Assembly (NCBI GenBank): GCA_018062825.1 | Contig: JAGORL010000002.1 | Span: 1,629 to 65,628, forward strand | Source of the DNA: Patescibacteria group bacterium | GTDB taxonomy: Bacteria > Patescibacteriota > Patescibacteriia > UBA9934 | Length of the DNA stretch: 64,000 nucleotides | Reading direction: 5' to 3' | In this document: positions 1,230-56,840 of the stretch, in pieces | Position numbering within the stretch: the first letter of the stretch is position 1 | How the letters are laid out: every line of letters begins with the position of its first letter | Notes under the pieces: generated by a model | The model's database searches: none | Seen by the model: the letters and a program-made list of their open reading frames with translations, nothing else | What the model was told of the DNA's origin: nothing | Translations under genes and position numbers: made by a program

Positions 1230-1303
1230 TCCGAGATCGTCTAACGGCAGGACAGAGGACTCTGAATCCTCTAATCATGGTTCGAATCCATGTCTCGGAA
1301 CCA
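1230..1303 (+). tRNA. tRNA-Gln (anticodon CUG)
   Basis: Manual cloverleaf: acceptor TCCGAGA/TCTCGGA, anticodon stem GAGGA/TCCTC, loop CTCTGAA, T-arm CATGG-TTCGAAT-CCATG, discriminator A, CCA encoded. Confidence 0.85.
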
Positions 1304-1307
1304 AAAT

Positions 1308-1335
1308 AAGACCACCTTCGGGTGGTCTTATTTTG
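1308..1335 (+). terminator. rho-independent terminator (AAGACCACC-TTCG-GGTGGTCTT + ATTTTG)
   Basis: Perfect 9-bp stem with a tetraloop and a U-tract immediately after the tRNA. Confidence 0.8.
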
Positions 1336-1473
1336 TCCTGAGCATGACATCATTCGTCATGCGAAGGACCCGTCACGACCTGTTCCTACAAGACCGGGAC
1401 AGGGGGTGACCAAGAAAACCCTCCTCCCTTCATTGGGTGGCGGGTTTTCGATTTATTGGATAAAATTTAGAAT

Positions 1474-2202
1474 ATGCTCCCAGTTCCGGAAGAATCTCGT
1501 GAAAAAGTCTATTGCCTTGAGGACCCGAGATGGTTTGCACCTATTAATGTCATTTCGCATTACAGTAGCCATCTCGATTCCTTGCCGCGCGAACAGAAGA
1601 AAACCAAAGCTTTTCGTAAAGCATATGAACTGTTTCTTGGTGCGATTATGCTGTTGGGCATTCAAGAAGTAGAGAATGACGTGTACTGGATACAGCCAGT
1701 TTCAGATGAGGAGCAATCTCCAGATGTTCGCACCGGTCGACAAGTACCAGTGAATAACGGTCACGCCCCAGATTTTGAAAGGCAGGATATCGAGGTTGTT
1801 GCATTCATTCCTAAACCTGGCGAGAATCTATCCGAATTTCTTCAACGTACAAAACTGTCTGGAAACAAATCCTACGACTCGAAAACAACCATCTTGTGTC
1901 ACATCCAGACAGGCTCACCCGTTCCGAAAATCACTATTACAGATGAGTTAAGAAAAACAAAAGCTGTTTGCCCGGTTCTTGTATTGGGTCGCACTCACCC
2001 GACGGACCATCAATATCTCTTACTTCAAGTATCCCCAAATTATAAAATTATTGCTCAATACGATGCTAAGGCATTATTGTTAAAACAGGCTCATCAAGGA
2101 TCACTAAACCTTCGGCGAGGTTCAAAACCAGATAATGAGCATCGTCCGAACGATAAGCACTATCCCTTTGAATCCATGGGTTTCACATGTTCTTTGATTT
2201 AG
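1474..2202 (+). CDS. hypothetical protein (AT-rich island)
   Basis: 242-aa ORF in the tRNA-adjacent AT-rich segment; no recognisable motif. Confidence 0.45.
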   Translation: MLPVPEESREKVYCLEDPRWFAPINVISHYSSHLDSLPREQKKTKAFRKAYELFLGAIMLLGIQEVENDVYWIQPVSDEEQSPDVRTGRQVPVNNGHAPDFERQDIEVVAFIPKPGENLSEFLQRTKLSGNKSYDSKTTILCHIQTGSPVPKITITDELRKTKAVCPVLVLGRTHPTDHQYLLLQVSPNYKIIAQYDAKALLLKQAHQGSLNLRRGSKPDNEHRPNDKHYPFESMGFTCSLI

Positions 2203-2215
2203 AAGATAGTACATT

Positions 2216-2956
2216 ATGAGCAATCAACGCCCCAAGATTTCAGACCCCATCCGTCGAAAAATCCGCCAACGTTGCGGCTTTGGTTGTGTATTGTGTGGCT
2301 ACCCTCTCTACGAGTATGACCATATCGAGGGCTGGGCGAATGTTAAGCGGCATCAGGAAGAAGACATCACTCTTTTATGTGTAACGCATCATACTGAGGT
2401 TACTCATAAACTATTGTCACGAGAGGCGGTGAAGGCAGCAAATAAGGATCCATATAATCATCGTCAGGGAGTGAGTAAGCCCTATTTTTTGAATTATGCT
2501 GGGGGCGATCTAGAGACGGAGATTGGTGGAAATATATTTCAGGCCGCAGTCCCGCTCATAATCGAGGATCAACCGATCATCGGATATCAGTCGGATGGAG
2601 AAAACCTCTTACTCTATGTAAAATTATTTGATAAAGACGGAAATCTTGTATTGGACATAGATGCGAACGAGCTCGTTTACTCAATTGACCGGTGGGATAT
2701 AGAGTTGGTTGCTAATCAGCTAACTATACGTGCAGATAAGGGTAAATTCTTAGTTCGAATGCGATTTATCGTGCCTCATAAACTCTACATTGATAGGGGT
2801 ATTATCCAGTATAAAAATCGGTCAGTGTTTATTCAAGATCAGCAGATGACTGTGGATAATGCTGCCATCTTGAGCGGCAGTCGTATTACAGCACCGGTAG
2901 GAATTGCGATTGGTACCTATACGCGTCCGTTCTCATGCGCTATTAGGATCAATTAA
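2216..2956 (+). CDS. HNH endonuclease-domain protein with unknown C-terminal domain
   Basis: N-terminal CGFGCVLCGYPLYEYDHIEGWANVKRHQEEDITLLCVTHHTEV fits the HNH pattern C-x-x-C ... DH ... N ... H-H. The stop TAA is followed by a G-rich tract. Confidence 0.65.
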   Translation: MSNQRPKISDPIRRKIRQRCGFGCVLCGYPLYEYDHIEGWANVKRHQEEDITLLCVTHHTEVTHKLLSREAVKAANKDPYNHRQGVSKPYFLNYAGGDLETEIGGNIFQAAVPLIIEDQPIIGYQSDGENLLLYVKLFDKDGNLVLDIDANELVYSIDRWDIELVANQLTIRADKGKFLVRMRFIVPHKLYIDRGIIQYKNRSVFIQDQQMTVDNAAILSGSRITAPVGIAIGTYTRPFSCAIRIN

Positions 2957-3103
2957 AGGGGGAACAGGGTTTAGGGGCATATAGAAAGGGGTCCCAAAGC
3001 CTCCCCAAAGGCTCAGTCCGTGACCGGGCCATAGAAAACAAGATAAAAATCAAAAACTGACTTTTCTTTTGTTCTTATAAGTATATGATATGTTGGAATC
3101 TAT

Positions 3104-3277
3104 ATGAAAAAATGTATTAAATGCGGACATGCTGAGATGCACACATCAGAACCAATCAGAATTCAAATCAACAGTGAATCAAATCCTTCAAAATTCTTAG
3201 ATATCAATAGATGCAATACTGAAGACTGTGAATGCATTTTAACGCTACAAGAAAAAAGAGACCTCGAAATTGATTAG
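3104..3277 (+). CDS. small zinc-ribbon protein (57 aa), hypothetical
   Basis: MKKCIKCGHAEMHTSEPIRIQINSESNPSKFLDINRCNTEDCECILTLQEKRDLEID, found by manual translation; it is below the ORF-track length cutoff. Confidence 0.3.
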   Translation: MKKCIKCGHAEMHTSEPIRIQINSESNPSKFLDINRCNTEDCECILTLQEKRDLEID

Positions 3278-3307
3278 GAAAATTTACTAAAATCACAACT
3301 AATATAT

Positions 3308-3709
3308 ATGGGATTCTGGATGAACTTTAGAAAAAAAATGTTATGCGAAACATTTTTTTCATCCTACTGCTCAAGAAAGGCTCACTACCCGATGGAAGAC
3401 GAAAATCAATGGTTGAAAGCAGCTATTGAGGAAATATTAACAGATTTTGTTAATCATGATCTCAAAATGATGCCTGAGTTGCTAAATCAAAATGCAGAAT
3501 CAATTTTAAGTCGGATAAAAAACACAGACCCTTACCGACAGGCAATAATTGAACTCTGGAGTTCCTATAAATTTAGTAAACAAATAAGTAAAAATGACTT
3601 TAGTCAAATGTTTAATAACTTTTACGAAAGCGAAAAAGAAATCGAACCACATTACTCAAAGGCCTATATTAAGTATAAAAATAAATTCCCTAAACTGATT
3701 AACTCTTAA
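3308..3709 (+). CDS. hypothetical protein (AT-rich island)
   Basis: 133-aa ORF. The true start may be the internal Met (MEDENQ...). Confidence 0.4.
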   Translation: MGFWMNFRKKMLCETFFSSYCSRKAHYPMEDENQWLKAAIEEILTDFVNHDLKMMPELLNQNAESILSRIKNTDPYRQAIIELWSSYKFSKQISKNDFSQMFNNFYESEKEIEPHYSKAYIKYKNKFPKLINS

Positions 3710-3763
3710 AGTATTGCATTGATCTCTCAGCAGCATGCAATGTAAAGAGGCAACATGCACAAG

Positions 3764-3779
3764 CCCCCCCCTTTTTTTT
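3764..3779. repeat. adjacent homopolymers C8 then T8 between convergent genes
   Basis: AAGCCCCCCCCTTTTTTTTA read directly. Confidence 0.9.
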
Positions 3780-3780
3780 A

Positions 3781-4329
3781 TCACATCTCCTCCCTCTTAA
3801 TCTTATCAACGAGCGCATCAGGCTCAAGGCGAACCTTGAACGAGTCACTCAACAAAGTGTCATACGTGGTGTGATGTGGTCGGACGGTTTTCTCAAGAGC
3901 AACTCCCTGCCCTTCTAGCTGCAAAGCAAAATCATCAAGTGAACCAGTTAGCGGATAGATCTCGATATGATCAAAACCACTGACCTGGCTGCCATCAGGC
4001 TTTTGATCGGACAATTCTAAGTACCAAATATCACCGAGCTCCGTCGCAATTGGAGTCGTAAATTTAACGATCGCAATACGGCGCGCTGAAATGATCGACT
4101 GATACACAAAATCACTGTGGTAATCAAAGAAAGCTCGCAGCTCTTCATACTCTTCCTGACTCCCACACTTATAACAGATATGGTCGGCGCGAGCGGCTGG
4201 CTGAGTTTTCGCTACCCAGGCATTGAAGAGATCAAGCTCTTTCTGGGCGGCTAAAAAGAATTCGTTGAGATTTTTATACATACAAGGCTCAAAGCACCAT
4301 AGCATGAGGTAAAAACAATGAGTACTCAA
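3781..4329 (-). CDS. hypothetical protein
   Basis: 182-aa ORF. Segments FDHIEIYPLTGSLDD / GQGVAL faintly resemble a VOC/glyoxalase-like fold, with low confidence. The true start is probably an internal Met. Confidence 0.45.
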   Translation of the reverse strand: MSTHCFYLMLWCFEPCMYKNLNEFFLAAQKELDLFNAWVAKTQPAARADHICYKCGSQEEYEELRAFFDYHSDFVYQSIISARRIAIVKFTTPIATELGDIWYLELSDQKPDGSQVSGFDHIEIYPLTGSLDDFALQLEGQGVALEKTVRPHHTTYDTLLSDSFKVRLEPDALVDKIKREEM

Positions 4330-4397
4330 GCAGTGGAAAAGACCTGTCGTTTACTTGGCGTTTAAGTGCTATATTTTGCACTAAAATAAAACATCCT

Positions 4398-5699
4398 GTG
4401 GCTACCGAACAACCCCCAAAAACCCCAACAAAACCAACGATCAAACTCACGAAAGAACTTCGAGAACTCTTAGAGGTCTTAGAAAACACTTCAGAGAACG
4501 TTTTCCTAAGCGGTAAAGCCGGCACCGGAAAATCAACTTTCTTGAGATACTTTCGATCGATCACCAAAAAGAATGTAGTCGTCCTGGCGCCAACTGGCAT
4601 TGCCGCCGTTGGGATTCAAGGGCAAACAATTCACTCCTTTTTTAAATTTGGCATTGATACCACGCTCAATGATGTGGAGCCGGTTGCAAAAAGCGCTATC
4701 TATAAAAAGATTGATCTCCTGGTTATTGATGAAATCTCCATGGTGCGCTCGGATCTTTTTGATTGCATGGAAAAGTTCATGCGCTTAAATGGCAGAGAGA
4801 AGCACCTCCCCTTTGGTGGCGTGCAGCTACTTGTAATTGGAGACTTACATCAACTGCCACCGGTCGTAAAAAGAAATGGTGAAGAGAACATTTTTACCGA
4901 ACTCTACGAAGGGCCGCATTTCTTTGACGCCATGTCATACCGCAGTGCCGAATTTAAAAAGATGGAACTTACCCACGTTTTTCGTCAAAATCAAAAACAC
5001 TTCATCGAGGCGCTTGATGCGATTCGGATCAACAAGTACACCGCCAAGCACCTAAAGCTCATTAACGATCGAGTAGCTAAAAATAACGATCACGAGCTTG
5101 ATTTCACTATCTCAATTGTTACTACCAACAAAACCGCGGATGAGATCAACAAGAAAAAACTAGAAAGTTTGAGTACCAAAAAGAAGGTGTACAAAGGCGC
5201 TATTCAAGGCAAGTTCAAAGAAACACTCCCAACCGATGAAAGCCTTGAACTCAAATGCGGTTCGCAAGTCATGCTCATTAAAAACGACCCAGAGGGCCGC
5301 TTTGTAAATGGCGATATCGGTAAAGTGAAATCACTGACCGATAGTGAAGTAGAGGTTATTTTCGAAAGCGGCAAGTGCGTGAGCGTGAGTTCAGAAACCT
5401 GGAACAATATCAATTTCAAACTTGATTCCGCCAAAAGAAAGATTGAAACCGAAACCGTCGGATCATTCACACAAATTCCGATCAAACTCGCCTGGGCGAT
5501 CACCATTCACAAAGCTCAGGGCAAAACCTTTGATAAAGTACATATTGATATGGGCCGCGGCGCCTTTGATTCAGGGCAGACATACGTTGCTCTGAGTCGA
5601 GCACGAACACTCGAAGGTATAACATTAAAGCAACCAATTTATCCGAGAGATATTTATACAAATTCTAGAGTCGATGCTTTTATGAGCAATGACCGTTAG
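4398..5699 (+). CDS. Pif1/RecD-family ATP-dependent DNA helicase
   Basis: Walker A LSGKAGTGKST, FGGVQLLVIGDLHQLPPV, AITIHKAQGKTFDKV, YVALSRAR. Confidence 0.8.
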   Translation: MATEQPPKTPTKPTIKLTKELRELLEVLENTSENVFLSGKAGTGKSTFLRYFRSITKKNVVVLAPTGIAAVGIQGQTIHSFFKFGIDTTLNDVEPVAKSAIYKKIDLLVIDEISMVRSDLFDCMEKFMRLNGREKHLPFGGVQLLVIGDLHQLPPVVKRNGEENIFTELYEGPHFFDAMSYRSAEFKKMELTHVFRQNQKHFIEALDAIRINKYTAKHLKLINDRVAKNNDHELDFTISIVTTNKTADEINKKKLESLSTKKKVYKGAIQGKFKETLPTDESLELKCGSQVMLIKNDPEGRFVNGDIGKVKSLTDSEVEVIFESGKCVSVSSETWNNINFKLDSAKRKIETETVGSFTQIPIKLAWAITIHKAQGKTFDKVHIDMGRGAFDSGQTYVALSRARTLEGITLKQPIYPRDIYTNSRVDAFMSNDR

Positions 5700-6333
5700 C
5701 ACTATGGAAAAATCATACGGAAATATTGCCGCCGCTCTTATCTTCAACGGCGCCATGGTCGCACTTTTCATGCAAGCACTCTTAAGGCCAGAGGCTAATG
5801 CCGAATGGATCTTTCGAGGAGCATTTCTCATCTTCATCTTTGAGTTCTTAGCGATCTTTGCCCAACTCTGGCCTATTAAGCTCGTAGATGAATGGAAAAA
5901 GTCTGATGCTATTAAGAAAACCGGCGTCGTAGTGCAGGGCGTTATTATCTCCCTCTTTATTCTTGGCTTCACCTTTGGCTTTAGTTACCTTGCAGGCAAC
6001 GTAGCCGCCGGTGGCTACTTTGTGATCTCAATGATCGCTAAGTACGTAAGTCATGCAAAAAACGGCATGGACATGAAAGCGACCTATGCCGGTATTTTAA
6101 TCTTCATGGGAACTCTCATGGCAGTCTCGTTCACCTCCCCGGTGTGGCCAGCCATCTTTCCGTTCCCAGAGTCGGTACTCGCACAAAAAATCGACGGTTC
6201 AAGCGGTATGTTTGTCGATGCCCCGCAAGTGCAACTTGTCTGGGGAGCCCTCTACTTCCTCGGTCTCACGATGTACGAACTTAAGAAACCCATCATCGAC
6301 GCCTGGTTTACGAAGTATCAAGTAAAGAAGTAA
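5689..6333 (+). CDS. hypothetical multi-pass membrane protein
   Basis: Several hydrophobic segments. It overlaps the end of the helicase gene, so the two are probably co-transcribed; the start may be at 5704. Confidence 0.5.
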   Translation: MTVSTMEKSYGNIAAALIFNGAMVALFMQALLRPEANAEWIFRGAFLIFIFEFLAIFAQLWPIKLVDEWKKSDAIKKTGVVVQGVIISLFILGFTFGFSYLAGNVAAGGYFVISMIAKYVSHAKNGMDMKATYAGILIFMGTLMAVSFTSPVWPAIFPFPESVLAQKIDGSSGMFVDAPQVQLVWGALYFLGLTMYELKKPIIDAWFTKYQVKK

Positions 6334-8103: not shown

Positions 8104-8460
8104 TTAATGCTTGAAAATCTTTGAATAGCTAGCGATCATGCGTGATAATTTTCGTGAATCATCGAGGCCTTTAGTAAAAGTATCCTGAGAAAAATAACCC
8201 AAATCAAAACCTGCATAAAATAACGAACGAACTTCACCACACGAACCTTTTGCAATCAGTAAATAATTAGCCATGGTTTTAGTTGAATGCGATTCATGAC
8301 CTTCCGCTATATTGTTCATCACCGACAAAGAAGCACGACGCATTTGAGAACGAAAATCACGATCAATGACACTTTTTGTAGAGGAATAAACAAAAGTAAC
8401 AAGCTGCCTAGCCTCTTGCCAGATACGCAAATCTTCGAATGTCTTATATGCCTTATCCAT
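8104..8460 (-). CDS. four-helix-bundle protein (23S rRNA intervening-sequence protein family; Avd-like)
   Basis: 118 aa; RIWQEARQLVTFVY ... MNNIAEGHE ... GSCGEVRSL is characteristic of the TIGR02436-type family. Confidence 0.8.
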   Translation of the reverse strand: MDKAYKTFEDLRIWQEARQLVTFVYSSTKSVIDRDFRSQMRRASLSVMNNIAEGHESHSTKTMANYLLIAKGSCGEVRSLFYAGFDLGYFSQDTFTKGLDDSRKLSRMIASYSKIFKH

Positions 8461-8470
8461 ATCACTAACG

Positions 8471-8547
8471 ACCCCTTCTTGCCCTCCACCTTCACCCCTC
8501 CTCCCTTCACCCTTCCGCCCTTCCTCCTTTCCACCCTTCCGCCCCCA
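8471..8547 (-). repeat. G-rich (sense-strand) purine repeat tract, GGCGGAAGGG / GGAAAGG units
   Basis: Minus strand reads GGGGGCGGAAGGGTGGAAAGGAGGAAGGGCGGAAGGGTGAAGGGAGGAGGGGTGAAGG. It starts at the TAG stop of the upstream ATPase gene. Confidence 0.6.
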
Positions 8548-11634: not shown

Positions 11635-11649
11635 TTCTCACACTATCCC

Positions 11650-13038
11650 CTATACCCTATTCCCTTCCTTCACCCTCTGCCCCTCAGCTGTATCCTCAAC
11701 CACAAACCCAAGTTCGGCAATTGCATCACGCAATCTATCTGAAGCTGAAAAATCTTTGTTAGATCGAGCGGCGGCACGTTCATCAAGTAGTGCCTGCACA
11801 CTTGGCGGCACAAGTACCGGTCGCGCGACCACGTCATCAAGCGTCAAACCAAGCACTTCATCAAAAGCCAAAAGAGTAGCGGCTTTAGTCGAACTAACAA
11901 CATTTGCGTCACTAACAAGCTCCCACAAGACCGCCAAAGCCCCTGGCGTATCAAGGTCATCGCTAACGCGTGCCATAAAGCGATCAACGTACCCAGTATC
12001 AGGAGTACTTGGCTTTTCAAGCGTACGAGCAAGATCGATCAAGCGATTTAGTGCTTGATGAGAAGCGCCAAGCGCTTCAAACGTAAAGTTCTGCGGGGTT
12101 CGGTAATGCGCCTGCAAAATAAAGTAACGGAAATCGAACGGGGAAAAACCCTTAGCTTCAAGATCATCAAGAGAGTACGTATTTCCAAGCGATTTACTCA
12201 TCTTGCCGCCATCAACCAGTAAAAACTCATTGTGCATCCAAAGGTTTGCCTCCAAAACTCCACGAGCACCAAGGGTTTGCGCCAACTCATTCTCATGATG
12301 CACCGCAATGTGATCAATGCCACCCGTATGAATATCAAAAGGAACGCCTAAATACTTCTCCCCCATGGCTGAACACTCAATATGCCAACCCGGAAAACCC
12401 TTACCCCATGGCGACTCCCACTCCATATGACGCTTCTCGCCAGCCGGTGAAAACTTCCACAAGGCAAAGTCAGCGGCACTACGCTTACCATCGGTCTCAA
12501 CACGAGCTCCCCCTTCTTTCTCCTCCATCTTCTGCCCAGAAAGCTGGCCGTACTCCGGCAGCTTGGCAACATCAAAATAAATGCCGTCATCCGTGCGGTA
12601 CGTAAAACCATTCTTCTGAAGCTCTTCAACCATGGCAATCTGCTCAGCAATATGATCAGTAGCCTTAGGAATAACGGTTGGCATCAGATTGTTCACTCGA
12701 CGAATATCGGCAAGAAAAAGTTTAGTGTATTCGTCAGCAATATCCCACGCCGTTTTACCCTTCTTCTTGGAAGCAACCTCAAGCTTATCCTCGCCGCTTG
12801 ATGCGTCATCAGTTAAATGACCAACATCCGTAATATTCATGACCGCCGTCACCGCAAAACCATTCTTTTCTAGTGTACGTCGTAAAAGGTCAGCAAAAAT
12901 AAATGATCGCAAATTTCCGATGGAAGCTCGATCGTAAACCGTTGGTCCACAAGAATACATTCCGACCTTGCCCGGTACCTGAGGAGTAAAAATCTCTTTT
13001 TTGCGACCAAGGGTATTGAAAAATGCGATGACATGCAT
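11650..13038 (-). CDS. cysS: cysteine--tRNA ligase
   Basis: YSCGPTVYD, HIGH-like and KMSKS motifs. Start set at the internal Met (MHVIAFFNTLGRKKEIF). The C-terminal GNRV-stop is encoded by the G-rich repeat. Confidence 0.85.
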   Translation of the reverse strand: MHVIAFFNTLGRKKEIFTPQVPGKVGMYSCGPTVYDRASIGNLRSFIFADLLRRTLEKNGFAVTAVMNITDVGHLTDDASSGEDKLEVASKKKGKTAWDIADEYTKLFLADIRRVNNLMPTVIPKATDHIAEQIAMVEELQKNGFTYRTDDGIYFDVAKLPEYGQLSGQKMEEKEGGARVETDGKRSAADFALWKFSPAGEKRHMEWESPWGKGFPGWHIECSAMGEKYLGVPFDIHTGGIDHIAVHHENELAQTLGARGVLEANLWMHNEFLLVDGGKMSKSLGNTYSLDDLEAKGFSPFDFRYFILQAHYRTPQNFTFEALGASHQALNRLIDLARTLEKPSTPDTGYVDRFMARVSDDLDTPGALAVLWELVSDANVVSSTKAATLLAFDEVLGLTLDDVVARPVLVPPSVQALLDERAAARSNKDFSASDRLRDAIAELGFVVEDTAEGQRVKEGNRV

Positions 13039-13140: not shown

Positions 13141-13704
13141 TCACCACGTGATGCCCACAGAAGCACCCTGGTACTCGGTACCCGTATCCACCCGCCAGCG
13201 AGGGATATCATCCCCCTCAGCGAAGGGCGAGAAGTCGATCCCGCGCTCAGTGCCACCCTGGAGTCCGAAAGCCAGATGCATCGGGAACACGACCACGGTC
13301 GTGACCACACGCTGCTGACCCGCAAACATCACCGGGCGACCAATGAGGTGAAACGGTGAGACACCGAGGTCGCTCGCGGCCACAACGAGCACGCGCGAGA
13401 ACTCCGGAAACGCCGCCGCTACGGCATTAACCGAAACTCCCTGAACGCTGTCCCGCTTCAAGTAGCGCGGCACCTCCACATCCGCCCCCACTGAGCAGTG
13501 AGGACCCTTGAGACGCATGCGACGCTCGACAAACGACCGCCTCACAACGCTCAGAACCGACCACTGCGGCACGAGCACCTGGTTCAAGGGAACGAACAAC
13601 CCATCAGCCTCCTTGCCGAGACCGGCGTAGAGAAAACGACGTCCAAACTCCTGGTGCAGGAGCACGTGCCCGAACAAGAAACCTTCTTGACCATCGTCGC
13701 TCAT
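13141..13704 (-). CDS. hypothetical protein, GC-rich cassette a1
   Basis: Start at MSDDGQEGF preceded by CTTGGAGGTG. The strongly GC-rich segment yields spurious antisense ORFs. Confidence 0.5.
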   Translation of the reverse strand: MSDDGQEGFLFGHVLLHQEFGRRFLYAGLGKEADGLFVPLNQVLVPQWSVLSVVRRSFVERRMRLKGPHCSVGADVEVPRYLKRDSVQGVSVNAVAAAFPEFSRVLVVAASDLGVSPFHLIGRPVMFAGQQRVVTTVVVFPMHLAFGLQGGTERGIDFSPFAEGDDIPRWRVDTGTEYQGASVGITW

Positions 13705-13745
13705 CTCACCTCCAAGGCGACAAGGTAGCGTAACAAAAAACACAA
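13705..13745 (-). promoter_or_regulatory. conserved cassette leader, copy a1 (CGCTACCTTG ... CTTGGAGGTG-ATG)
   Basis: Shared with leaders at 14447-14510, 20870-20898 and 45758-45813. Confidence 0.45.
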
Positions 13746-13792
13746 CAAAAAGCAAACAAAAGACTCGCCGCCCCTTCCGCAGCCGCGGAAGG
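13745..13792 (-). terminator. terminator of cassette a2 (CCTTCCGC-GGCT-GCGGAAGG + U-rich)
   Basis: 8-bp stem followed by a long T-rich run on the minus strand. Confidence 0.55.
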
Positions 13793-13810
13793 TAACGACG
13801 AGCCAGCGCC

Positions 13811-14446
13811 TCACCCGGACACGAACCGATCAACGACATCGGGTCCCTCCACGTGCCTCAGGAAGAGCGGATGAACCTGTTCGTTACGGTCGTACTGGGG
13901 CACCACAACGAACTTGCGAGTACCATCACCGTTTGCGCCCCACAGGTACAAACCGGCCTTGCGCTCCCCGTGATCACGTTCCACCTTGCGGTCGAACACG
14001 ATCGCGAAGCACTTGAGCACGTAGCGAACGCTGTGCGGATCACGCTCGAGGCGCACCAGCCGACCAAGTGACGAGAGCGGAAAGCGCGGCTCGCGCAGTA
14101 CGCCACGCAGAAGGTCGCGTCCCGTCGGCGTTGCCGCATCAAGGAAGCGTCGCCAGATATGCACGTAGGCTTCGTCATCACGCGGCAAAGCCACGATCTC
14201 GAAGCTCTGGAAAGGCTGCTCCACGCCGTTGATGGCAAAGTAGCTGCCACCGGCATCGATGAAACACTCCCGATCCGGATAGCCCGGCAAGGCTGCCGCC
14301 CGAAAGCGATCAATGCCATGCTCGGTACCCACCCGGGTGACAAAGGCCGCCACCACAGAACCACTCTCTTCCCCACGACCGTACACGACGATCGCGCTTG
14401 CTGCCGGGGCCTCACGGCCACGAGAGCTAGGCCGACTTTGACCCAT
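13811..14446 (-). CDS. hypothetical protein, GC-rich cassette a2
   Basis: Start at MGQSRPSS with RBS GGAGGGG. The alternative-frame ORF 13858-14421 has an implausible composition. Confidence 0.5.
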   Translation of the reverse strand: MGQSRPSSRGREAPAASAIVVYGRGEESGSVVAAFVTRVGTEHGIDRFRAAALPGYPDRECFIDAGGSYFAINGVEQPFQSFEIVALPRDDEAYVHIWRRFLDAATPTGRDLLRGVLREPRFPLSSLGRLVRLERDPHSVRYVLKCFAIVFDRKVERDHGERKAGLYLWGANGDGTRKFVVVPQYDRNEQVHPLFLRHVEGPDVVDRFVSG

Positions 14447-14510
14447 GACCCCTCCAGTCCTCGGGATGAATTCCCGCGCCAAGGTTAGATGAAAAATGAC
14501 AAAAACGCAA
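14447..14510 (-). promoter_or_regulatory. conserved cassette leader, copy a2 (TTGCGT-17-TAACCT; CTAACCTTGGC; ACTGGAGGGG-ATG)
   Basis: Aligned by eye with three other copies. Confidence 0.45.
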
Positions 14511-15578: not shown

Positions 15579-15803
15579 TTATTCATCAGCCTCACCGGCA
15601 CCACAATCTTCACAGTCGTCACAACAACGATCAGTATCAGACTCTTCATCGCAACAATCACAACTTTCACCACAGCTCACCTTTCCGCCATTCCCCCCTT
15701 CCGCCATTCCGCCTTTCTTCACAGGCATAGCGCAAACGCCATCATGACAGGTGGCCTTTGGTGCTTCTTTCTTTGCCCCAAACACTGACGAAAGCCATGA
15801 CAT
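15579..15803 (-). CDS. Cys/Asp-rich microprotein (74 aa), hypothetical
   Basis: [74 protein letters not shown]. It lies 5 nt upstream of dnaJ. The middle part is encoded by a GGCGGAAGGG-type repeat. Confidence 0.45.
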
Positions 15804-18320: not shown

Positions 18321-18872
18321 TTATACTTTCGCAGGAAACTGATAGATAAATTTTAACAACATCTCAACAAAGTGAATGATTTTTTCAGCCTCGTCCCTAG
18401 TGCGACTTTGGATTTCATGATTAGCGTCATTGCCAAGCTGTCTTATTGCATCGACCCAGTCACGACTACCTGGTGGAGTATAGTGATTCTCTACAAGCCA
18501 ATTCACATATTCCGCGAATTTCAGACCTTTATCTGCACCTTGCGACACAGCGACATTCATTAATACTTTGCGCATACACATAACTGAAGCCGTATAAGCA
18601 CTTACAGAAAAAGACTTTCTTCCTTCCGTGTATATTCCAAGAACATCAGTCGGCAAATCGCTTACATCATTGCCATACGCAACTCCTGGATATTGAACCC
18701 CTTCGCCAGAAAAATAAGTCGGATGATTACAAGCGTGACAAATGTATATACTCGCATGTGGGCTAGATGCATGAGAGCCTACAAAATATCCAACATTTGA
18801 TGCCAAAGGATTATGACAATACCCACAGGTATATGATCGAGACTTAATTATATGAGTCTGTATCCAAGCCAT
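18321..18872 (-). CDS. zinc-ribbon + DUF4145-domain protein
   Basis: N-terminal CGYC ... CHAC ribbon. The C-terminus ([18 protein letters not shown] ... [15 protein letters not shown] ... [17 protein letters not shown]) matches the DUF4145 pattern (IR..GN.AAH ... LL..LY). Confidence 0.7.
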
Positions 18873-20251: not shown

Positions 20252-20869
20252 CTACCGCACAACCGAGACCGTGAGAGCGATCTCGTTGTTGCAGGGGCGT
20301 GGCATCCCCAGACCGACGTAGCTACTAGCGTCGAAGGAGATCGCCGCCCCGCCTTCGAAGATGAAGAGTGCTCGTTGCCCAGCCTCGATCTCGCCAGAAG
20401 TCGGTGGGCACTCCAGGCTCCTGGCCTCGTAGTCGAACCACTCCAGAGTCGCGGTTCGACCACGCAATCGGATGCGCGGGCCGTCGATCTGAGTGACGAG
20501 GACACGTTGATCGTCGTGCGCTACGAAGCGCGGGATAACCATGTGCGCCCCTCGGCGCATGATGTAGGTGATGCCGATGCCGTGGAAGTCCTCCGGCTTC
20601 GGCAGGTGAATCACCCGCTGCTTGGGAACCGCGAGCTCGAGCACGAGCTCGTACTGCACACCGGAAGACGTACGCCTTCCTTGCCGCTGTCGGCGACGCT
20701 GAGAACGAACCTCCTTGCCCTGGGCAGACTCTCCGTCGATCACCCGGACACGGAAGCTGATGATCCGGTGGATCATCGCCAGTTGATCATAGGCCCCGCA
20801 CCGTGCGTAAGGCCCCTCCTTGCTGTTGCTCGACCCTGTGGAATCACGGGTCGCTGGCATGCCACACAT
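20252..20869 (-). CDS. hypothetical protein, GC-rich cassette b
   Basis: Start MCGMPATRD preceded by ACTGGAGGG; no recognisable domain. Confidence 0.5.
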   Translation of the reverse strand: MCGMPATRDSTGSSNSKEGPYARCGAYDQLAMIHRIISFRVRVIDGESAQGKEVRSQRRRQRQGRRTSSGVQYELVLELAVPKQRVIHLPKPEDFHGIGITYIMRRGAHMVIPRFVAHDDQRVLVTQIDGPRIRLRGRTATLEWFDYEARSLECPPTSGEIEAGQRALFIFEGGAAISFDASSYVGLGMPRPCNNEIALTVSVVR

Positions 20870-20898
20870 TGGCCCTCCAGTAAGGCCAAGGTTAGCGG
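20870..20898 (-). promoter_or_regulatory. conserved cassette leader, copy b (TTGCGC-17-TAACCT; CGCTAACCTTGGCC; ACTGGAGGG-ATG)
   Basis: Aligned by eye with the other copies. Confidence 0.45.
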
Positions 20899-20931
20899 AA
20901 AAACAAAAAGAGCGCAAGACCGCGCTCTTTC
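20898..20931 (-). terminator. terminator of PP2C gene (AAAGAGCGC-GGTCTT-GCGCTCTTT + UUGUUUUU)
   Basis: Read directly. Confidence 0.75.
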
Positions 20932-24565: not shown

Positions 24566-24871
24566 AAATACGGCCTTATCGTCTAGCGGCTATCCGGCAA
24601 AGCCGGACCCGGCTCTGCCGGGGGACGTCATATGTACATCGTCTATATACTTTCGTCCGAAAGCAATAATCGCTGGTACATTGGAATGACTGCAGACATT
24701 AAGGTTCGTTTAGGTGAACACAATGCAGGTCGCGTGCGCTCCACAAAGCCATATGTTCCGTATCGCATTATTTATACGGAAACATATCCAGACAAAACAA
24801 CTGCGCGGAAAAGAGAGATTCAGATTAAAAAATCTGGATTAATCCGCAAGCAGTTAAAAGACAGGATTACC
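24566..24871 (+). mobile_element. 306-bp GIY-YIG mini-element inserted at the 5' end of tRNA-Glu, bounded by 26-bp direct repeats (24566-24591 and 24872-24897)
   Basis: The repeat AATACGGCCTTATCGTCTAGCGGCTA covers the first 21 nt of the tRNA. Two tandem hairpins (TCCGGCAAAGCCGGA, CCCGGCTCTGCCGGG) precede the ORF. Confidence 0.45.
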
Positions 24872-24898
24872 AATACGGCCTTATCGTCTAGCGGCTAG
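24632..24898 (+). CDS. GIY-YIG nuclease family protein (small, YhbQ/UPF0213-like)
   Basis: MYIVYIL ... WYIGMT ... R ... EHN ... motif set. The stop codon TAG lies inside the D-arm of tRNA-Glu. Confidence 0.8.
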   Translation: MYIVYILSSESNNRWYIGMTADIKVRLGEHNAGRVRSTKPYVPYRIIYTETYPDKTTARKREIQIKKSGLIRKQLKDRITNTALSSSG

Positions 24899-24951
24899 GA
24901 CGGCACCCTCTCACGGTGCAGACCCGGGTTCGATTCCCGGTAAGGTCACCA
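24877..24951 (+). tRNA. tRNA-Glu (anticodon CUC)
   Basis: Acceptor GGCCTTA/TAAGGTC (one G-U), anticodon stem GCACC/GGTGC, loop CTCTCAC, T-arm CCGGG-TTCGATT-CCCGG, CCA encoded. Confidence 0.85.
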
Positions 24952-43657: not shown

Positions 43658-44527
43658 CTATTGATTGAACACGACATTAGCCTCGTACTCCTGCCCTGAC
43701 TCATTAGCTTCGATTGTAAGACGGGCTCGATCCCCAGTTGGCAGCAAGAAATCAATACCTGAAGCCGTGGTTACGATGTTAGAAAACAGCGGTGTCGTCA
43801 TCTGGCCGTCAACATCAATACATGGCACCCGTTTTGCAATCGGAAGTGCAAAAACGAGTGGCACCACCTGCGTCGAGATCGATGAACTTAATACAACTCC
43901 TGACACCTCCGCTGTCGCGCCTTGCTCTTGTGAACATTCCTCCGTCACATATAAATCAACCGTATCGTGCGCAGGATAAAGAATCGCGTTGAATTTTATC
44001 TTCTCTAAGCCCCAACCCCTCTCAGAACGCATCCTTAGGACATCGAATCCCGATTGATCAAATGCAATTTCAAGATATTCGCCCACCTCTGGAGCACCAT
44101 TCCACATTGAAAATGTATGCGAACCATCTTCATTTTTTACAAAACCAAAAACTTTTCTAATCGGACTCAATGCAACAGTATAAACAACCTCCTCTTCACC
44201 GTTTTGAATATTTTTACGATTAAGTTGATATAAATATCCCCCATCATTCTCAACTACCTCGTCAGAAAAGAAAAATTCACCAATACTATATTCGAGACCT
44301 CGAATCTCATTCTCAACATTCAAGATAGCGTTCTCTTGCTTAAGAATTTCGTTTTCAATGCCGACGGCATGCATCCTCTCGCCCATAGCGCCCAAGCTCT
44401 CACGAAGATAGATAGTTACAAAAATCAAAACAAGTACCGCAGCAGCTGTCGACAAAAAAGCTAATAACAAAGCAACAGACACCCCGAGCAAACCGTTGCT
44501 CTTCTTTACCACTTTTTTGTTCGCCAT
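43658..44527 (-). CDS. hypothetical membrane-anchored protein with coiled-coil segment
   Basis: 289-aa ORF. Confidence 0.45.
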   Translation of the reverse strand: MANKKVVKKSNGLLGVSVALLLAFLSTAAAVLVLIFVTIYLRESLGAMGERMHAVGIENEILKQENAILNVENEIRGLEYSIGEFFFSDEVVENDGGYLYQLNRKNIQNGEEEVVYTVALSPIRKVFGFVKNEDGSHTFSMWNGAPEVGEYLEIAFDQSGFDVLRMRSERGWGLEKIKFNAILYPAHDTVDLYVTEECSQEQGATAEVSGVVLSSSISTQVVPLVFALPIAKRVPCIDVDGQMTTPLFSNIVTTASGIDFLLPTGDRARLTIEANESGQEYEANVVFNQ

Positions 44528-44542
44528 ATTATCAACGAGTAT

Positions 44543-44582
44543 AACAGAAAACGACCCCCGCTCCAGGTGAGCTAGGGGTCGT
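44543..44582 (-). terminator. terminator of GC-rich cassette c (ACGACCCC ... GGGGTCGT + UUUUCUGUU)
   Basis: Read directly. Confidence 0.6.
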
Positions 44583-44590
44583 GAGTGGGT

Positions 44591-45757
44591 TTACGCCGCC
44601 GCGATGATCGGCTTCACCGCGTTGTAGACCGCCTTGGCGTTCAGACCAGGCCGAGCGAGCTCGCCCTGGAGAACCATGAACTGACCGCGCATGCCAGGCA
44701 GAACCGGGCGCTCGAAGTCGTCGTCCGTGAGGTCGGTCGAACCAAGCGCGTAGGCGATGTCGCCGGCAGTCGCGATCGCGTTGCGGCGATCGATGTCAGA
44801 GAGCGGCTGATCACGCTCCTTCGCGACCGAGGCGACGGTGAGCACTTCGTCGAGACTCTCGCGGATGGCGAGGATCTCGAGCGAACGACGCACCTTGTCG
44901 ACGTGCACGAACGCCGTGATGAGATCACCGGTCTTGATCGCCTCGATGGCGATCTTGAGGTCGATCACGTCACGCACGAACGAGCGGCGGCCGTCCGGAG
45001 CGATCACGATCGCGTTCAGGATGGCGACCTGCGCCTCGAACTGCTGCACGTAGTAGCTCTGGGTCTTGAGCTTCTCCGGCTCACGGCGCCAGCGCAGGAA
45101 CGCCTGCGTGACCCGCATGAGCTCCGAGCGTACTCCATCGAGCTGATCGCGGATGGCGAGCAGCACACGGGCGCGGACGTCGATGAACGCCCCGATCCGC
45201 CGCATGTTGCCCTTGCGAGTCGCGAGACGGTGCTCCGCCGACCAGATGATCGGCAGCCGAGACATCGGGTTCACCCGCTTGATCGAATCCTTCGGAAGCG
45301 CCGCCCGACCGGTCTGGTCGCGCGCGTACATCTTCGATTCGTCACGGAAGTGCGGGTGCTTGGCGTAGAAGTCCTCCATCTGCCGCCGCACCATGTTCTG
45401 TTCGTCGATCGGCAGGCGCTGCAGATCGACGAACACCGAGTACCCCCACGCGAGGGTGCCGAGCCACGCCTTGATCTGCGTCTCCTCGTCCTCGTAGCTG
45501 TTCGGCACGTGCCGGGCAACCGCGCGGATCGCCGAGTACAGACCATCGTTGTACGTGGAGAAGGCGCCGCTCTCCTGGTTGTAGAGGAGCACAGCACCCT
45601 TCTTGATCTCCCCCGCCGCCACCGCGGCAATGAGCACACGCCCCGGCAGGGGCTCCTTCACGGCGAGGGCCACATCGCCCTCCTTGACCGTGATCTTTCG
45701 CTCGACGATCTGCCCGTTTCCGGGGATTCGACCGTCAGTACCAGTACGCACGTCCAT
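44591..45757 (-). CDS. hypothetical protein (388 aa, largely helical), GC-rich cassette c
   Basis: Minus-strand frame has a protein-like composition. The plus-strand 395-aa ORF is an R/D/L/H-rich antisense artefact. Confidence 0.5.
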   Translation of the reverse strand: MDVRTGTDGRIPGNGQIVERKITVKEGDVALAVKEPLPGRVLIAAVAAGEIKKGAVLLYNQESGAFSTYNDGLYSAIRAVARHVPNSYEDEETQIKAWLGTLAWGYSVFVDLQRLPIDEQNMVRRQMEDFYAKHPHFRDESKMYARDQTGRAALPKDSIKRVNPMSRLPIIWSAEHRLATRKGNMRRIGAFIDVRARVLLAIRDQLDGVRSELMRVTQAFLRWRREPEKLKTQSYYVQQFEAQVAILNAIVIAPDGRRSFVRDVIDLKIAIEAIKTGDLITAFVHVDKVRRSLEILAIRESLDEVLTVASVAKERDQPLSDIDRRNAIATAGDIAYALGSTDLTDDDFERPVLPGMRGQFMVLQGELARPGLNAKAVYNAVKPIIAAA

Positions 45758-45813
45758 GCCACCTCCAAGTGATTGGCGGCTGAAAGGTTAGCGAAATTTT
45801 AGAACTTTGTCAA
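45758..45813 (-). promoter_or_regulatory. conserved cassette leader, copy c (TTGACA-17-TAACCT; TCGCTAACCTTTC; CACTTGGAGGTGGC-ATG)
   Basis: Aligned by eye with the other copies. Confidence 0.45.
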
Positions 45814-45816
45814 CGT

Positions 45817-45841
45817 AAAAGACCGCCTAGGCGGTCTTTTA
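45817..45841. terminator. bidirectional terminator (AAAAGACCGCC-TA-GGCGGTCTTTT)
   Basis: Follows mltG on the minus strand. Confidence 0.75.
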
Positions 45842-45848
45842 CATCTTC

Positions 45849-54732: not shown

Positions 54733-54800
54733 AAACAACCACTTATACACATCTAATGCCGCCCCTTCCCCCTTTCCGCCTTTCCACCTACACTCTCCAC

Positions 54801-56345: not shown

Positions 56346-56375
56346 AAAGCACGCGACCAAAAGTCCGTGCTTTTG
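56346..56375 (+). terminator. terminator (AAGCACG-CGACCAAAAGTC-CGTGCTTTT)
   Basis: Read directly. Confidence 0.6.
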
Positions 56376-56401
56376 ACTTTTTGGCTAAAATTTGCTATAA
56401 T
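56373..56401 (+). promoter_or_regulatory. sigma70 promoter TTGACT-17-TATAAT followed by RBS GGAGGA
   Basis: Near-consensus; drives the 56425 ORF. Confidence 0.65.
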
Positions 56402-56424
56402 AAAGAGGTTGCCTGGAGGACAAG

Positions 56425-56790
56425 ATGACCCTTTTTCTGCTCTTTTTCGCCTGTATCATCCCCCCACAGGAAGATCTCACCACTGCTACGTCACCGGCCG
56501 CCAAGACCAAAGCGGAGCCGACTGCCGAAGTCATCGATCACAAACCCATCGGTAAGATCGCCTGCGCCGAGATGGAGCGCGTCACCTGGAAGGGTGACGT
56601 CTGGCTTACCGGAGGCGATGAACCTACCCTCGCCTACATCGAAGAGGTCGCAGATGGGAAGAAAGTGGCCTGTGCCCTCGCCTGGCCATTTCGCCACCCG
56701 AAGTTCGCGGAGTTCTCCTTCTGCGAGAAGCGAAGCGGGCGTGGCGAATGCATCACCGTGCACCCCGAGCTCGAGACGCTCGACGAATAA
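56425..56790 (+). CDS. putative lipoprotein, hypothetical
   Basis: Signal-like N-terminus ending in FFAC (lipobox-like). Confidence 0.45.
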   Translation: MTLFLLFFACIIPPQEDLTTATSPAAKTKAEPTAEVIDHKPIGKIACAEMERVTWKGDVWLTGGDEPTLAYIEEVADGKKVACALAWPFRHPKFAEFSFCEKRSGRGECITVHPELETLDE

Positions 56791-56803
56791 ACTCTGCAAC
56801 ACA

Positions 56804-56840
56804 AACGCCCGACGGCTATCCGTCGGGCGTTCATCTTTTT
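56804..56840. terminator. bidirectional terminator (AACGCCCGACGG-CTAT-CCGTCGGGCGTT + CATCTTTTT)
   Basis: 12-bp perfect stem. Confidence 0.8.

Follow-up and report, generated by a model that had tools for sequence, protein, structure and literature searches.

A Patescibacteria gene family with a maintained excess of G- and C-ending codons, carried in the window by a predicted autonomous transcription unit

We analysed a 64-kb stretch of the genome of a Patescibacteria group bacterium (contig JAGORL010000002.1; the whole stretch is henceforth referred to as the window), and in particular a GC-rich unit at positions 44542-45842 whose minus strand encodes a protein of 388 amino acids (aa). We will refer to this unit as unit c and, in comparisons across loci, to its gene and the homologues of that gene as the target. 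We found that the excess of G- and C-ending codons in this gene is a family trait, is limited to the coding sequence (CDS) and is actively maintained. The reading which we favour, with moderate confidence, is that 44542-45842 is an autonomous monocistronic unit carrying a clade-specific, chromosomally inherited gene, in which the excess of GC content at third codon positions (GC3) is maintained by selection at the level of the mRNA. The bias would then be kept by selection on the mRNA or its translation (i.e., stability, structure or decoding) in a presumably strongly expressed gene, and unit c would, in the genus of the window, have joined a few GC-rich orphan units with one promoter and leader design.

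Coding strand and composition of unit c

The protein is encoded by the open reading frame (ORF) 44591-45757 on the minus strand (stop included), starts with MDVRTG and corresponds to the NCBI entry 'hypothetical protein KBC55_02390 [Patescibacteria group bacterium]', located on a 197,750-bp contig. The start codon is backed by an N-terminus which is kept in homologues (MDVRTGTDG in the sister locus L001 and MDIRTGTGEG in the more distant locus L002). The CDS has 65% GC overall in a 48% GC genome, with GC at first, second and third codon positions (GC1/2/3) of 0.67/0.41/0.86; GC3 of the 55 other ORFs in the window has a median of 0.47 and a maximum of 0.73. When measured per segment, GC was 0.62-0.66 over 44600-45799 versus 0.43-0.49 in the flanks, with the step coinciding with the edges of the CDS. 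Several independent assemblies (NCBI, Logan, JGI and ENA) carry the gene, which excludes an assembly chimera. The features of the unit are as follows:

44591..45757, minus strand: CDS of the 388-aa protein (ORF call, homologues, ratio of nonsynonymous to synonymous substitution rates (dN/dS), structure model)
44585..45772, plus strand: 395-aa antisense ORF, a non-coding by-product (codon-aligned; frame broken in L007, L011, L008 and L009)
45815..45842, minus strand: predicted intrinsic terminator for mltG/yceG, the gene upstream (a perfect palindrome of 14 bp between an A-run and a T-run)
45785..45813, minus strand: sigma-70-type promoter-like site (TTGACA at 45808-45813, 17-nt spacer, TAACCT at 45785-45790)
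45758..45784, minus strand: 5′ leader with a perfect Shine-Dalgarno (SD) site (GGAGG at 45762-45766, four nt, ATG)
44542..44582, minus strand: predicted intrinsic terminator of unit c (hairpin at 44551-44582, then UUUUCUGUU, a U-run)

A first-pass annotation of the window, made from the sequence alone, had taken the minus strand as coding and the 395-aa plus-strand ORF as an artefact, and both calls hold. The gene is under purifying selection (dN/dS of 0.28 between the window and L001; 0.03-0.13 in neighbouring genes), and motifs of the sense protein are conserved across 26 family members. One could still propose dual coding, i.e., that the plus-strand ORF is a second gene and that GC richness preserves both frames, given that the antisense frame is full-length in the window, L001, L002 and L006, which are the GC3-richest homologues. 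However, this frame is open exactly when TTA, CTA and TCA are absent from the sense gene. Unit c has none of the three (0 among 50 Leu and Ser codons), which follows from the low frequency of A at third positions (2-3%; 2% in unit c), and in L007, L011, L008 and L009 the antisense frame contains 17, 7, 2 and 1 stops, respectively. We thus consider dual coding to be already refuted by the broken frames, with next to no probability left to it.

A protein family at a fixed chromosomal position

A word-indexed search of 5.8 billion proteins returned only the protein itself, a homologue with 80% identity and a homologue with 43% identity. An exhaustive HMMER scan of 1.84 billion representatives gave 54 clusters (at 50% identity) with lengths of 213-444 aa, mostly 370-440; a word-indexed profile search and a metagenome scan added one further usable member and one further locus, respectively. 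All family members that could be placed were on Patescibacteria-like contigs. No relative was found in GTDB representative genomes searched with family patterns, and the 80 loci returned by a uvrD-anchored scan all came from other phyla and lacked the family (the best was a 'Candidatus Uhrbacteria' contig which starts at uvrD and is hence silent on the upstream slot). Judging by these comparisons, we take the 388-aa protein to define an undescribed, clade-specific family of Patescibacteria. On contigs of sufficient length, the genomic contexts of its members were as follows:

L001 (80% identity): yceG-target-uvrD
L002-L005 (43% identity): yceG-DUF2207-406aa-target-uvrD-malic enzyme
L007 (27% identity): yceG-DUF2207-target-uvrD
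L008 (~32% identity): yceG, a 579-aa gene in the DUF2207 position (no recorded Pfam match), target; the contig stops before uvrD
L009/L010 (~31% identity): DUF2207 ... NUDIX-target-uvrD-...-malic enzyme
L095 (27% identity): yceG-target-APH-152aa-uvrD

The position mltG/yceG(-DUF2207)...uvrD is therefore kept at 80%, 43% and 25-33% identity; other genes in the slot vary across lineages, and the family member is the constant one. In the window, a membrane-anchored 289-aa ORF (43658-44527, minus strand; GC3 0.41, no Pfam match) lies between the terminator of unit c and uvrD. It is missing from L001, where uvrD directly follows the target, which identifies it as a recent insertion in the slot.

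The first-pass annotation had called the unit a cassette. In the sense of an inserted or mobile piece this term does not fit, given homologues at the same locus down to the lowest identities above and the lack of mobility features: no integrase or recombinase was found nearby, the only tRNAs in the window are at 1230 and 24877, and no conserved repeat flanks the unit. The one repeat found at the flanks spans 17 nt and matches the terminator palindrome at 88%, and at its internal copy the sister protein differs (NAKAVYNAV vs SAQIIYDAV). A mobile cassette or integrated element was thus rejected, as there is no recombinase, nearby tRNA or attachment-site (att) repeat and the gene occupies the same site in the sister and in distant relatives. 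Neighbouring genomes, which had been proposed as a place to look for a phage or defence context, instead carry the homologues in synteny between mltG/yceG and uvrD. As for a clear housekeeping homologue at syntenic positions, which had been named as the outcome that would speak against a cassette, the synteny was found and the housekeeping identity was not, the homologue being itself uncharacterised.

The GC3 excess across the family and over time

We defined excess GC3 as the GC3 of the target minus the median of neighbouring ORFs, for the 11 loci with neighbours. The excess was positive in 11 of 11 loci (+0.09 to +0.41; sign test p = 0.0005), which are not fully independent as L002 and L092 carry the same protein cluster. 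Specifically, it was +0.39 in the window, +0.41 in L001, +0.22 in L002, +0.29 in L006, +0.13 in L007, +0.23 in L008, +0.21 in L009, +0.09 in L011, +0.27 in L092, +0.20 in L094 and +0.11 in L095. GC1 and GC2 were hardly raised.

The persistence of this excess was assessed by a single sister comparison, namely the window versus L001. At conserved residues, 74% of the target codons were identical, compared with 58% if codons were drawn independently from the gene's own usage; this corresponds to 62% of the distance to synonymous saturation, versus 71-89% for six flanking genes (raw proportions of synonymous differences, pS, were 0.35 in the target and 0.54-0.72 in the flanks). On this measure unit c appears to have diverged for roughly as long as its neighbours, i.e., it would have co-diverged with them rather than been inserted. 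The GC3 of both sister copies is 0.85-0.86, and third-position swaps between G and C make up 28 of the 77 differences in the target, against 3-10 of ~70-200 in the flanking genes. Given that GC3 was held at 0.85-0.86 over near-saturating divergence, a fixation bias must act, and the composition is not a relic of transfer; according to a two-state relaxation argument, such a relic would have relaxed toward 0.45 in the same interval.

These observations bear directly on the possibility that the gene was acquired, recently or recurrently, from a GC-rich donor (e.g., an actinobacterial host or its phage) and is not yet ameliorated. Its codon usage is indeed like that of high-GC bacteria, its composition is sharply atypical, and distances within the family are partly incongruent with those of the flanks. 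By contrast, no homologue was found off Patescibacteria-like syntenic contigs in the protein searches above (5.8 and 1.84 billion proteins) or among phages, plasmids and IMG/VR; the position is conserved across deep divergence; and promoter, leader and terminator are native in composition and conserved. Furthermore, the GC3 of the target is above that of its neighbours even where genomes are richest in GC (0.92-0.95 vs 0.65-0.75), so that no sampled lineage can be the donor. A recently acquired foreign gene was therefore rejected on account of the undiminished GC3 in two lineages near synonymous saturation and the lack of homologues outside the clade, and we regard transfer as largely refuted and improbable.

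Codon choice, 5′ ramp and mRNA folding

In unit c, 99% of the codons for Phe, Tyr, Asn, His and Ile are NNC (i.e., end in C), compared with ~27% in typical genes and 50% in dnaK. Likewise, 95% of the codons for Lys, Glu and Gln are NNG, CTC plus CTG account for 94% of Leu codons (~15% in typical genes), and AGA and AGG are absent. G and C each have a frequency of 0.43 at third positions. This bias is weaker at the start of the gene: GC3 in codons 2-16 is 0.53 in the window, and it was lower in this region in 11 of 11 members, with a significant 5′ ramp in six of them (window P = 0.0013, L001 0.0003, L006 0.006, L094 0.0002, L007 0.036 and L011 0.044). Such a ramp usually indicates that selection has favoured an open initiation region, meaning that synonymous sites are visible to selection.

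We then computed mRNA folding stability against synonymous-codon shuffles. Compared with eight ordinary flanking genes from the window and L002 (z of +0.47 to -1.58), unit c reached -4.5, and the targets of L001, L008, L002 and L009 reached -3.7, -2.35, -1.65 and -1.6, respectively. Among other GC-rich genes (see below for units a and b), z was -5.4 in unit b, +0.24 and -1.53 in the two ORFs of unit a (a1 and a2) and -1.0 in the 406-aa gene of L002. An internal, near-perfect 17-bp hairpin (45399-45435, minus strand; -24.9 kcal/mol, z -4.8) contributes to the stability of the window mRNA and arises because the codons for FVD are the reverse complement of those for IDE. As a functional element it was rejected and judged fortuitous, being degraded in L001 and absent in L002. 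A density of GATC three times the window average was similarly set aside, as it is explained by codon usage and inconsistent across homologues. A literature search on codon usage or GC3 in Patescibacteria and on horizontal gene transfer in Uhrbacteria returned nothing relevant.

The pattern of bias along the gene also bears on GC-biased gene conversion, or a recombination hot spot in the variable yceG/DUF2207-uvrD slot, which would raise GC3 without any selection on the mRNA. We retain this as the main rival, though an unlikely one, given the recombinational variability of the slot and the presence of GC3-rich neighbours in some other lineages. Specifically, the window has the 289-aa ORF in the slot and L001 does not, L002 has the 406-aa gene, and L009 and L095 have several additional genes; the 406-aa gene (L002, 8704-9924) has a GC3 of 0.90 vs 0.70 in its genome, and genes in the region 5211-7331 of L009 have 0.70-0.73 vs 0.55 in theirs. 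The equal rise of G and C at third positions is also in line with gene conversion. However, the enrichment ends at the edges of the CDS and dips in codons 2-16, both of which conversion tracts would ignore, the 289-aa neighbour in the same slot has the low GC3 given above, and GC1 and GC2 are barely raised. Moreover, the effects of biased gene conversion reported in bacteria amount to a few percent of GC3, versus +0.4 here. Since the enrichment is confined to the CDS and falls off in the 5′ ramp, we consider selection at the mRNA or translation level a better account than gene conversion. The 406-aa gene of L002 was also considered as a paralogue of unit c and rejected (unrelated by hhalign; no Pfam match).

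Predicted promoter, leader and terminators, and their likeness to those of other GC-rich units

Autonomous transcription units were defined by -35 and -10 hexamers 16-18 nt apart, an SD site 4-9 nt before the start codon and a GC hairpin followed by a U-run, and unit c combines promoter-like hexamers, an SD site and a hairpin with U-run of this kind. The promoter and leader quoted in the first-pass annotation (TTGACA-17-TAACCT) are present exactly as given, together with GGAGG-N4-ATG, and the span which it delimited (44543-45841) runs from terminator to terminator, matching the hairpins which it had placed at both ends. The upstream hairpin (45815-45842) has a folding energy of -23.1 kcal/mol (z -7.3) and is conserved in L001; as the predicted mltG/yceG terminator, it would insulate unit c on the 5′ side. 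The downstream hairpin (44551-44582; -23.9 kcal/mol, z -3.7) is likewise conserved in L001, with uvrD directly after it. From the -35 hexamer to the ATG, unit c is ~90% identical to L001, where flanking genes differ at 54-72% of synonymous sites, and its promoter, leader and terminator have native composition. A scan of the leader against Rfam matched no family, and a predicted leader hairpin was not significant and differed between the window and L001.

The same design precedes other GC-rich units, as had been proposed. The pattern TTG-N20-TAACCT occurs three times in the 64 kb, solely before three GC-rich units (at ~14.5, 20.9 and 45.8 kb), compared with 0.35 expected occurrences, and none of 100 shuffles reached three. 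The longer pattern TAACCTT...TGGAGG-N4-ATG is found solely at the same three sites (expected 0.00). TAACCT alone is not enriched (18 observed vs 19 expected). Perfect GGAGG sites occur at roughly seven genuine gene starts, five of which are those of the GC-rich genes. Besides unit c, the GC-rich units of the window are as follows:

Unit a, 13144-14510, minus strand: a pair of ORFs (211 and 187 aa) with GC3 of 0.68-0.72
Unit b, 20255-20917, minus strand: 205 aa, GC3 0.75
Unit d, 56365-56830 (CDS 56425-56790), plus strand: 121 aa, lipoprotein-like (MTLFLLFFAC...), GC3 0.73

Upstream of unit d we found TTGACT-17-TATAAT, with a spacer (CTAAAATTTGC) like that of unit c, and TGGAGG-N5-ATG. None of units a, b and d matched Pfam, and units a and b had no credible match in PHROGs, PADLOC or NCBIfam. 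Unit b has a single homologue among the 5.8 billion proteins, with 60% identity. This homologue occupies the corresponding PP2C-b-hrcA position of the sister genome, where its GC3 is 0.70 versus ~0.39-0.49 in most neighbours; the leader of unit b is 96% identical in that genome. Based on these distributions, unit b would be a young, genus-level orphan, and unit c would be ancient in the clade. Since the leaders of units b and c have stayed nearly unchanged between the window and the sister genome, unlike the synonymous sites of flanking genes, we consider the leaders of the GC-rich units to be putative functional non-coding elements.

The homologue of unit c in L002 is preceded by TTGACA-17-TAGGAT, meaning that the TAACCT design is specific to the genus of the window; this suggests that unit c was recruited into a local regulon within the genus. 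The GC-rich orphan units which share this promoter and leader are probably co-regulated. One could go further and propose that the genus runs a small regulon of fast-evolving GC-rich orphans (a, b, c and probably d) whose codons are held for a property of the mRNA, e.g., resistance to an A/U-directed RNase or a long life during host attachment or dormancy, with unit c as an ancient core member whose GC3 excess is conserved clade-wide. We offer this proposal as speculative and hold it to be rather unlikely; if true, it would mean that composition can adapt gene by gene in a way that has not been described in bacteria.

Control of unit c by LexA, i.e., as part of the SOS response, was considered and rejected, as the target promoters lack GTTC-N7-GTTC-like boxes, though the lexA gene of L002 has them. 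As a separate observation, the lexA upstream region of L002 (17375-17430) contains two direct-repeat boxes of the GTTC-N7-GTTC type (GTTCGGTTTATGTTCG and CGAACAAAAACCGAAC). Direct-repeat LexA operators are of the Alphaproteobacteria type, and the boxes suggest that the clade of L002 within the Candidate Phyla Radiation (CPR) may use such an operator.

Predicted structure and possible function of the protein

The 388-aa protein has a mass of 43.4 kDa, is basic (isoelectric point of 9.3, 9.8% Arg) and has no qualifying transmembrane segment (maximum Kyte-Doolittle 19-residue mean of 1.5), i.e., it is predicted to be soluble. AlphaFold2, run with a 26-sequence alignment, gave a model with a predicted local distance difference test (pLDDT) score of 85.5 and a predicted template-modelling (pTM) score of 0.68, in which a five-stranded N-terminal beta domain (residues 18-69) is followed by eleven helices arranged in bundles. 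With 64% helix and 9% strand, the latter confined to the N-terminal domain, the model agrees with the earlier description of the protein as highly helical and of unknown function, since no Pfam or NCBIfam model matches it. Polar positions conserved in the family include R78, H83, E91, K142, D157, R161, N163, R181, R195 and D266, and the family has a conserved segment D-x3-(G)R-x-N-P...W-S-A.

Searches with the protein and the 26 members against Pfam, NCBIfam, PHROGs and PADLOC gave scattered sub-threshold matches only, a sequence profile search of the PDB gave nothing below E 0.1, and Foldseek against the PDB gave nothing at E <= 0.001. Local structural matches were to up-down helical bundles over 90-145 aligned residues with 4-15% identity. 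They covered at most ~40% of the protein, often with high root-mean-square deviation, left the N-terminal beta domain uncovered and showed no sequence relation, and they are thus a resemblance in shape, not membership of a family. A biotinyl/lipoyl domain was tried and rejected (NCBIfam MmdC E 0.015, 15.7 bits vs a cut-off of 200; hhalign against E. coli BCCP with a probability of 0.05%; no MK motif). The genomic neighbourhood gives no verdict on the role of the protein, with envelope genes upstream and uvrD downstream. The basic charge of the protein, its conserved constellation of Arg and Asp residues and the small beta domain at its N-terminus point weakly to a cytoplasmic binding protein, whose likeliest ligand would be a nucleic acid or a phosphorylated one.

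The first-pass annotation had also noted a faint resemblance to phage head or Abi-like (abortive infection) proteins, for which PHROGs, PADLOC and BFVD gave no support. In PHROGs the best match of the window protein was to a family of unknown function (E 0.16), and none of the 26 members had a match at E <= 0.01; Foldseek against BFVD gave nothing at E <= 0.001; and tblastn against 50,697 phage records, plasmids and IMG/VR found no match. A phage structural protein (major head or HK97-like), or any other PHROG family, was rejected on these three results. In PADLOC the window protein had no match, with one isolated match to ShosT (E 0.0011) among the 26 members. An Abi or anti-phage protein was rejected given the lack of PADLOC support and the position as a lone gene in the mltG/yceG-uvrD context. 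In favour of an origin from phage or a role in defence (Abi-like or HEPN-like) one could cite fast evolution (dN/dS of 0.28, against 0.03-0.13 in neighbouring genes) and an orphan-like family; many members have an R-x4-H spacing (R78...H83), where HEPN RNases have a four-helix fold with an R-x(4-6)-H motif; and the window has defence-style insertions elsewhere (e.g., a DUF4145 ORF). Taking both sides together, we consider such an origin or role very improbable.

Discussion

The case for selection on a presumably strongly expressed mRNA was drawn from the consensus -35 hexamer, the perfect SD site, the 5′ ramp, the 99% NNC codons and the stable mRNA. Extreme codon bias is found in highly expressed bacterial genes, e.g., tuf and omp in E. 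coli, and unit c is like such genes in its near-exclusive NNC codons, its lack of AGA and AGG, its perfect SD site, its consensus -35 hexamer and its low-structure 5′ ramp. It is unlike them in that its choices for Leu, Arg and Gly differ from those of dnaK and ribonucleotide reductase in its own genome.

Several points weigh against selection on the mRNA of a vertically inherited, strongly expressed gene. The first is the divergence in Leu, Arg and Gly codons just mentioned (dnaK and ribonucleotide reductase favour CGY, GGY and CTT/TTG), meaning that ordinary selection for tRNA adaptation is an incomplete explanation. Second, mRNA stability in L002 and L009 lies within the range of the controls, and the synonymous shuffles behind all z values do not preserve junction dinucleotides. 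Third, the promoter of unit c is a prediction, and TAACCT shares just three of the six positions of the sigma-70 -10 consensus, A2 and T6 among them. Fourth, target identity is 0.44 between the window and L002 and 0.26 between L002 and L007, while UvrD and YceG put L002 nearer to L007; target distances are thus not cleanly congruent with those of the flanks, and some lateral exchange is possible. Finally, context look-ups were seeded from family members, from which the universality of the gene in the clade is not inferable, and no homology or fold match establishes a function.

Compared with other lineage-specific conserved hypothetical proteins of Patescibacteria/CPR, the family is alike in having no Pfam or NCBIfam model, in being restricted to one candidate-phylum clade and in being syntenic with core genes. 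By contrast, its members exceed the GC3 of their genomes by as much as +0.41, an excess that is actively kept up throughout the family, and unit c shares a dedicated promoter and leader with other GC-rich orphan units. Horizontally acquired islets provide a second comparison: unit c resembles them in its sharp compositional break, its own promoter and terminators and its lack of annotation. Unlike them, it is GC-richer (not AT-richer) than its host, has no mobility genes, att repeats or adjacent tRNA, and is syntenic across deep divergence, without amelioration and without a donor lineage.

This matters because atypical composition is routinely read as foreign DNA. Unit c looks like an island and yet appears to be vertically inherited with its composition maintained, and with a GC3 excess of +0.39, its own predicted promoter and terminators and no annotation it would make a clean counter-example for island-calling methods. 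It also offers a tractable case for studying how, mutation bias aside, codon composition is determined in the reduced genomes of symbionts. The protein defines what we take to be a new Patescibacteria family, the fold of which is confidently predicted and unmatched in the PDB and BFVD searches above, and its fixed locus makes further members easier to discover. The promoter and leader common to the GC-rich orphans hint at a regulon.

Other observations in the window

An AT-rich island at 1230-6333 (plus strand; GC 0.32-0.48) lies beside tRNA-Gln(CTG), and its ORFs include a Pif1-like helicase (4398-5699) and several others for which Pfam gave no match; compared with unit c, it is the better candidate for a true acquired island. 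Between grpE and dnaK, at 18321-18872 (minus strand), lies the AT-rich DUF4145 ORF (GC3 0.31). The sister locus L096 lacks it and has grpE directly next to dnaK; the ORF may represent an insertion of a defence type into the heat-shock operon. An ORF of the 23S_rRNA_IVP / bAvd-like four-helix-bundle type is found at 8104-8460 (minus strand), with a similar gene in L007 (14923-15288) near the syntenic region; bAvd-like proteins are frequently found together with diversity-generating retroelements.

An exact 26-nt direct repeat occurs at 24567-24592 and 24872-24897, the second copy overlapping the 5′ end of tRNA-Glu(CTC) (24877-24951), and may be the remnant of an attachment-site duplication. Finally, the minus strand contains periodic purine-rich repeats (8509-8539, 15679-15717 and 54762-54784, as well as 262-298 and 11643-11665) with the units GGAAGGNG (8-nt period) and AGGGNAT (7-nt period). 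They are mostly intergenic, including upstream of dnaJ and of mraZ-rsmH, and may act as operator or leader elements.

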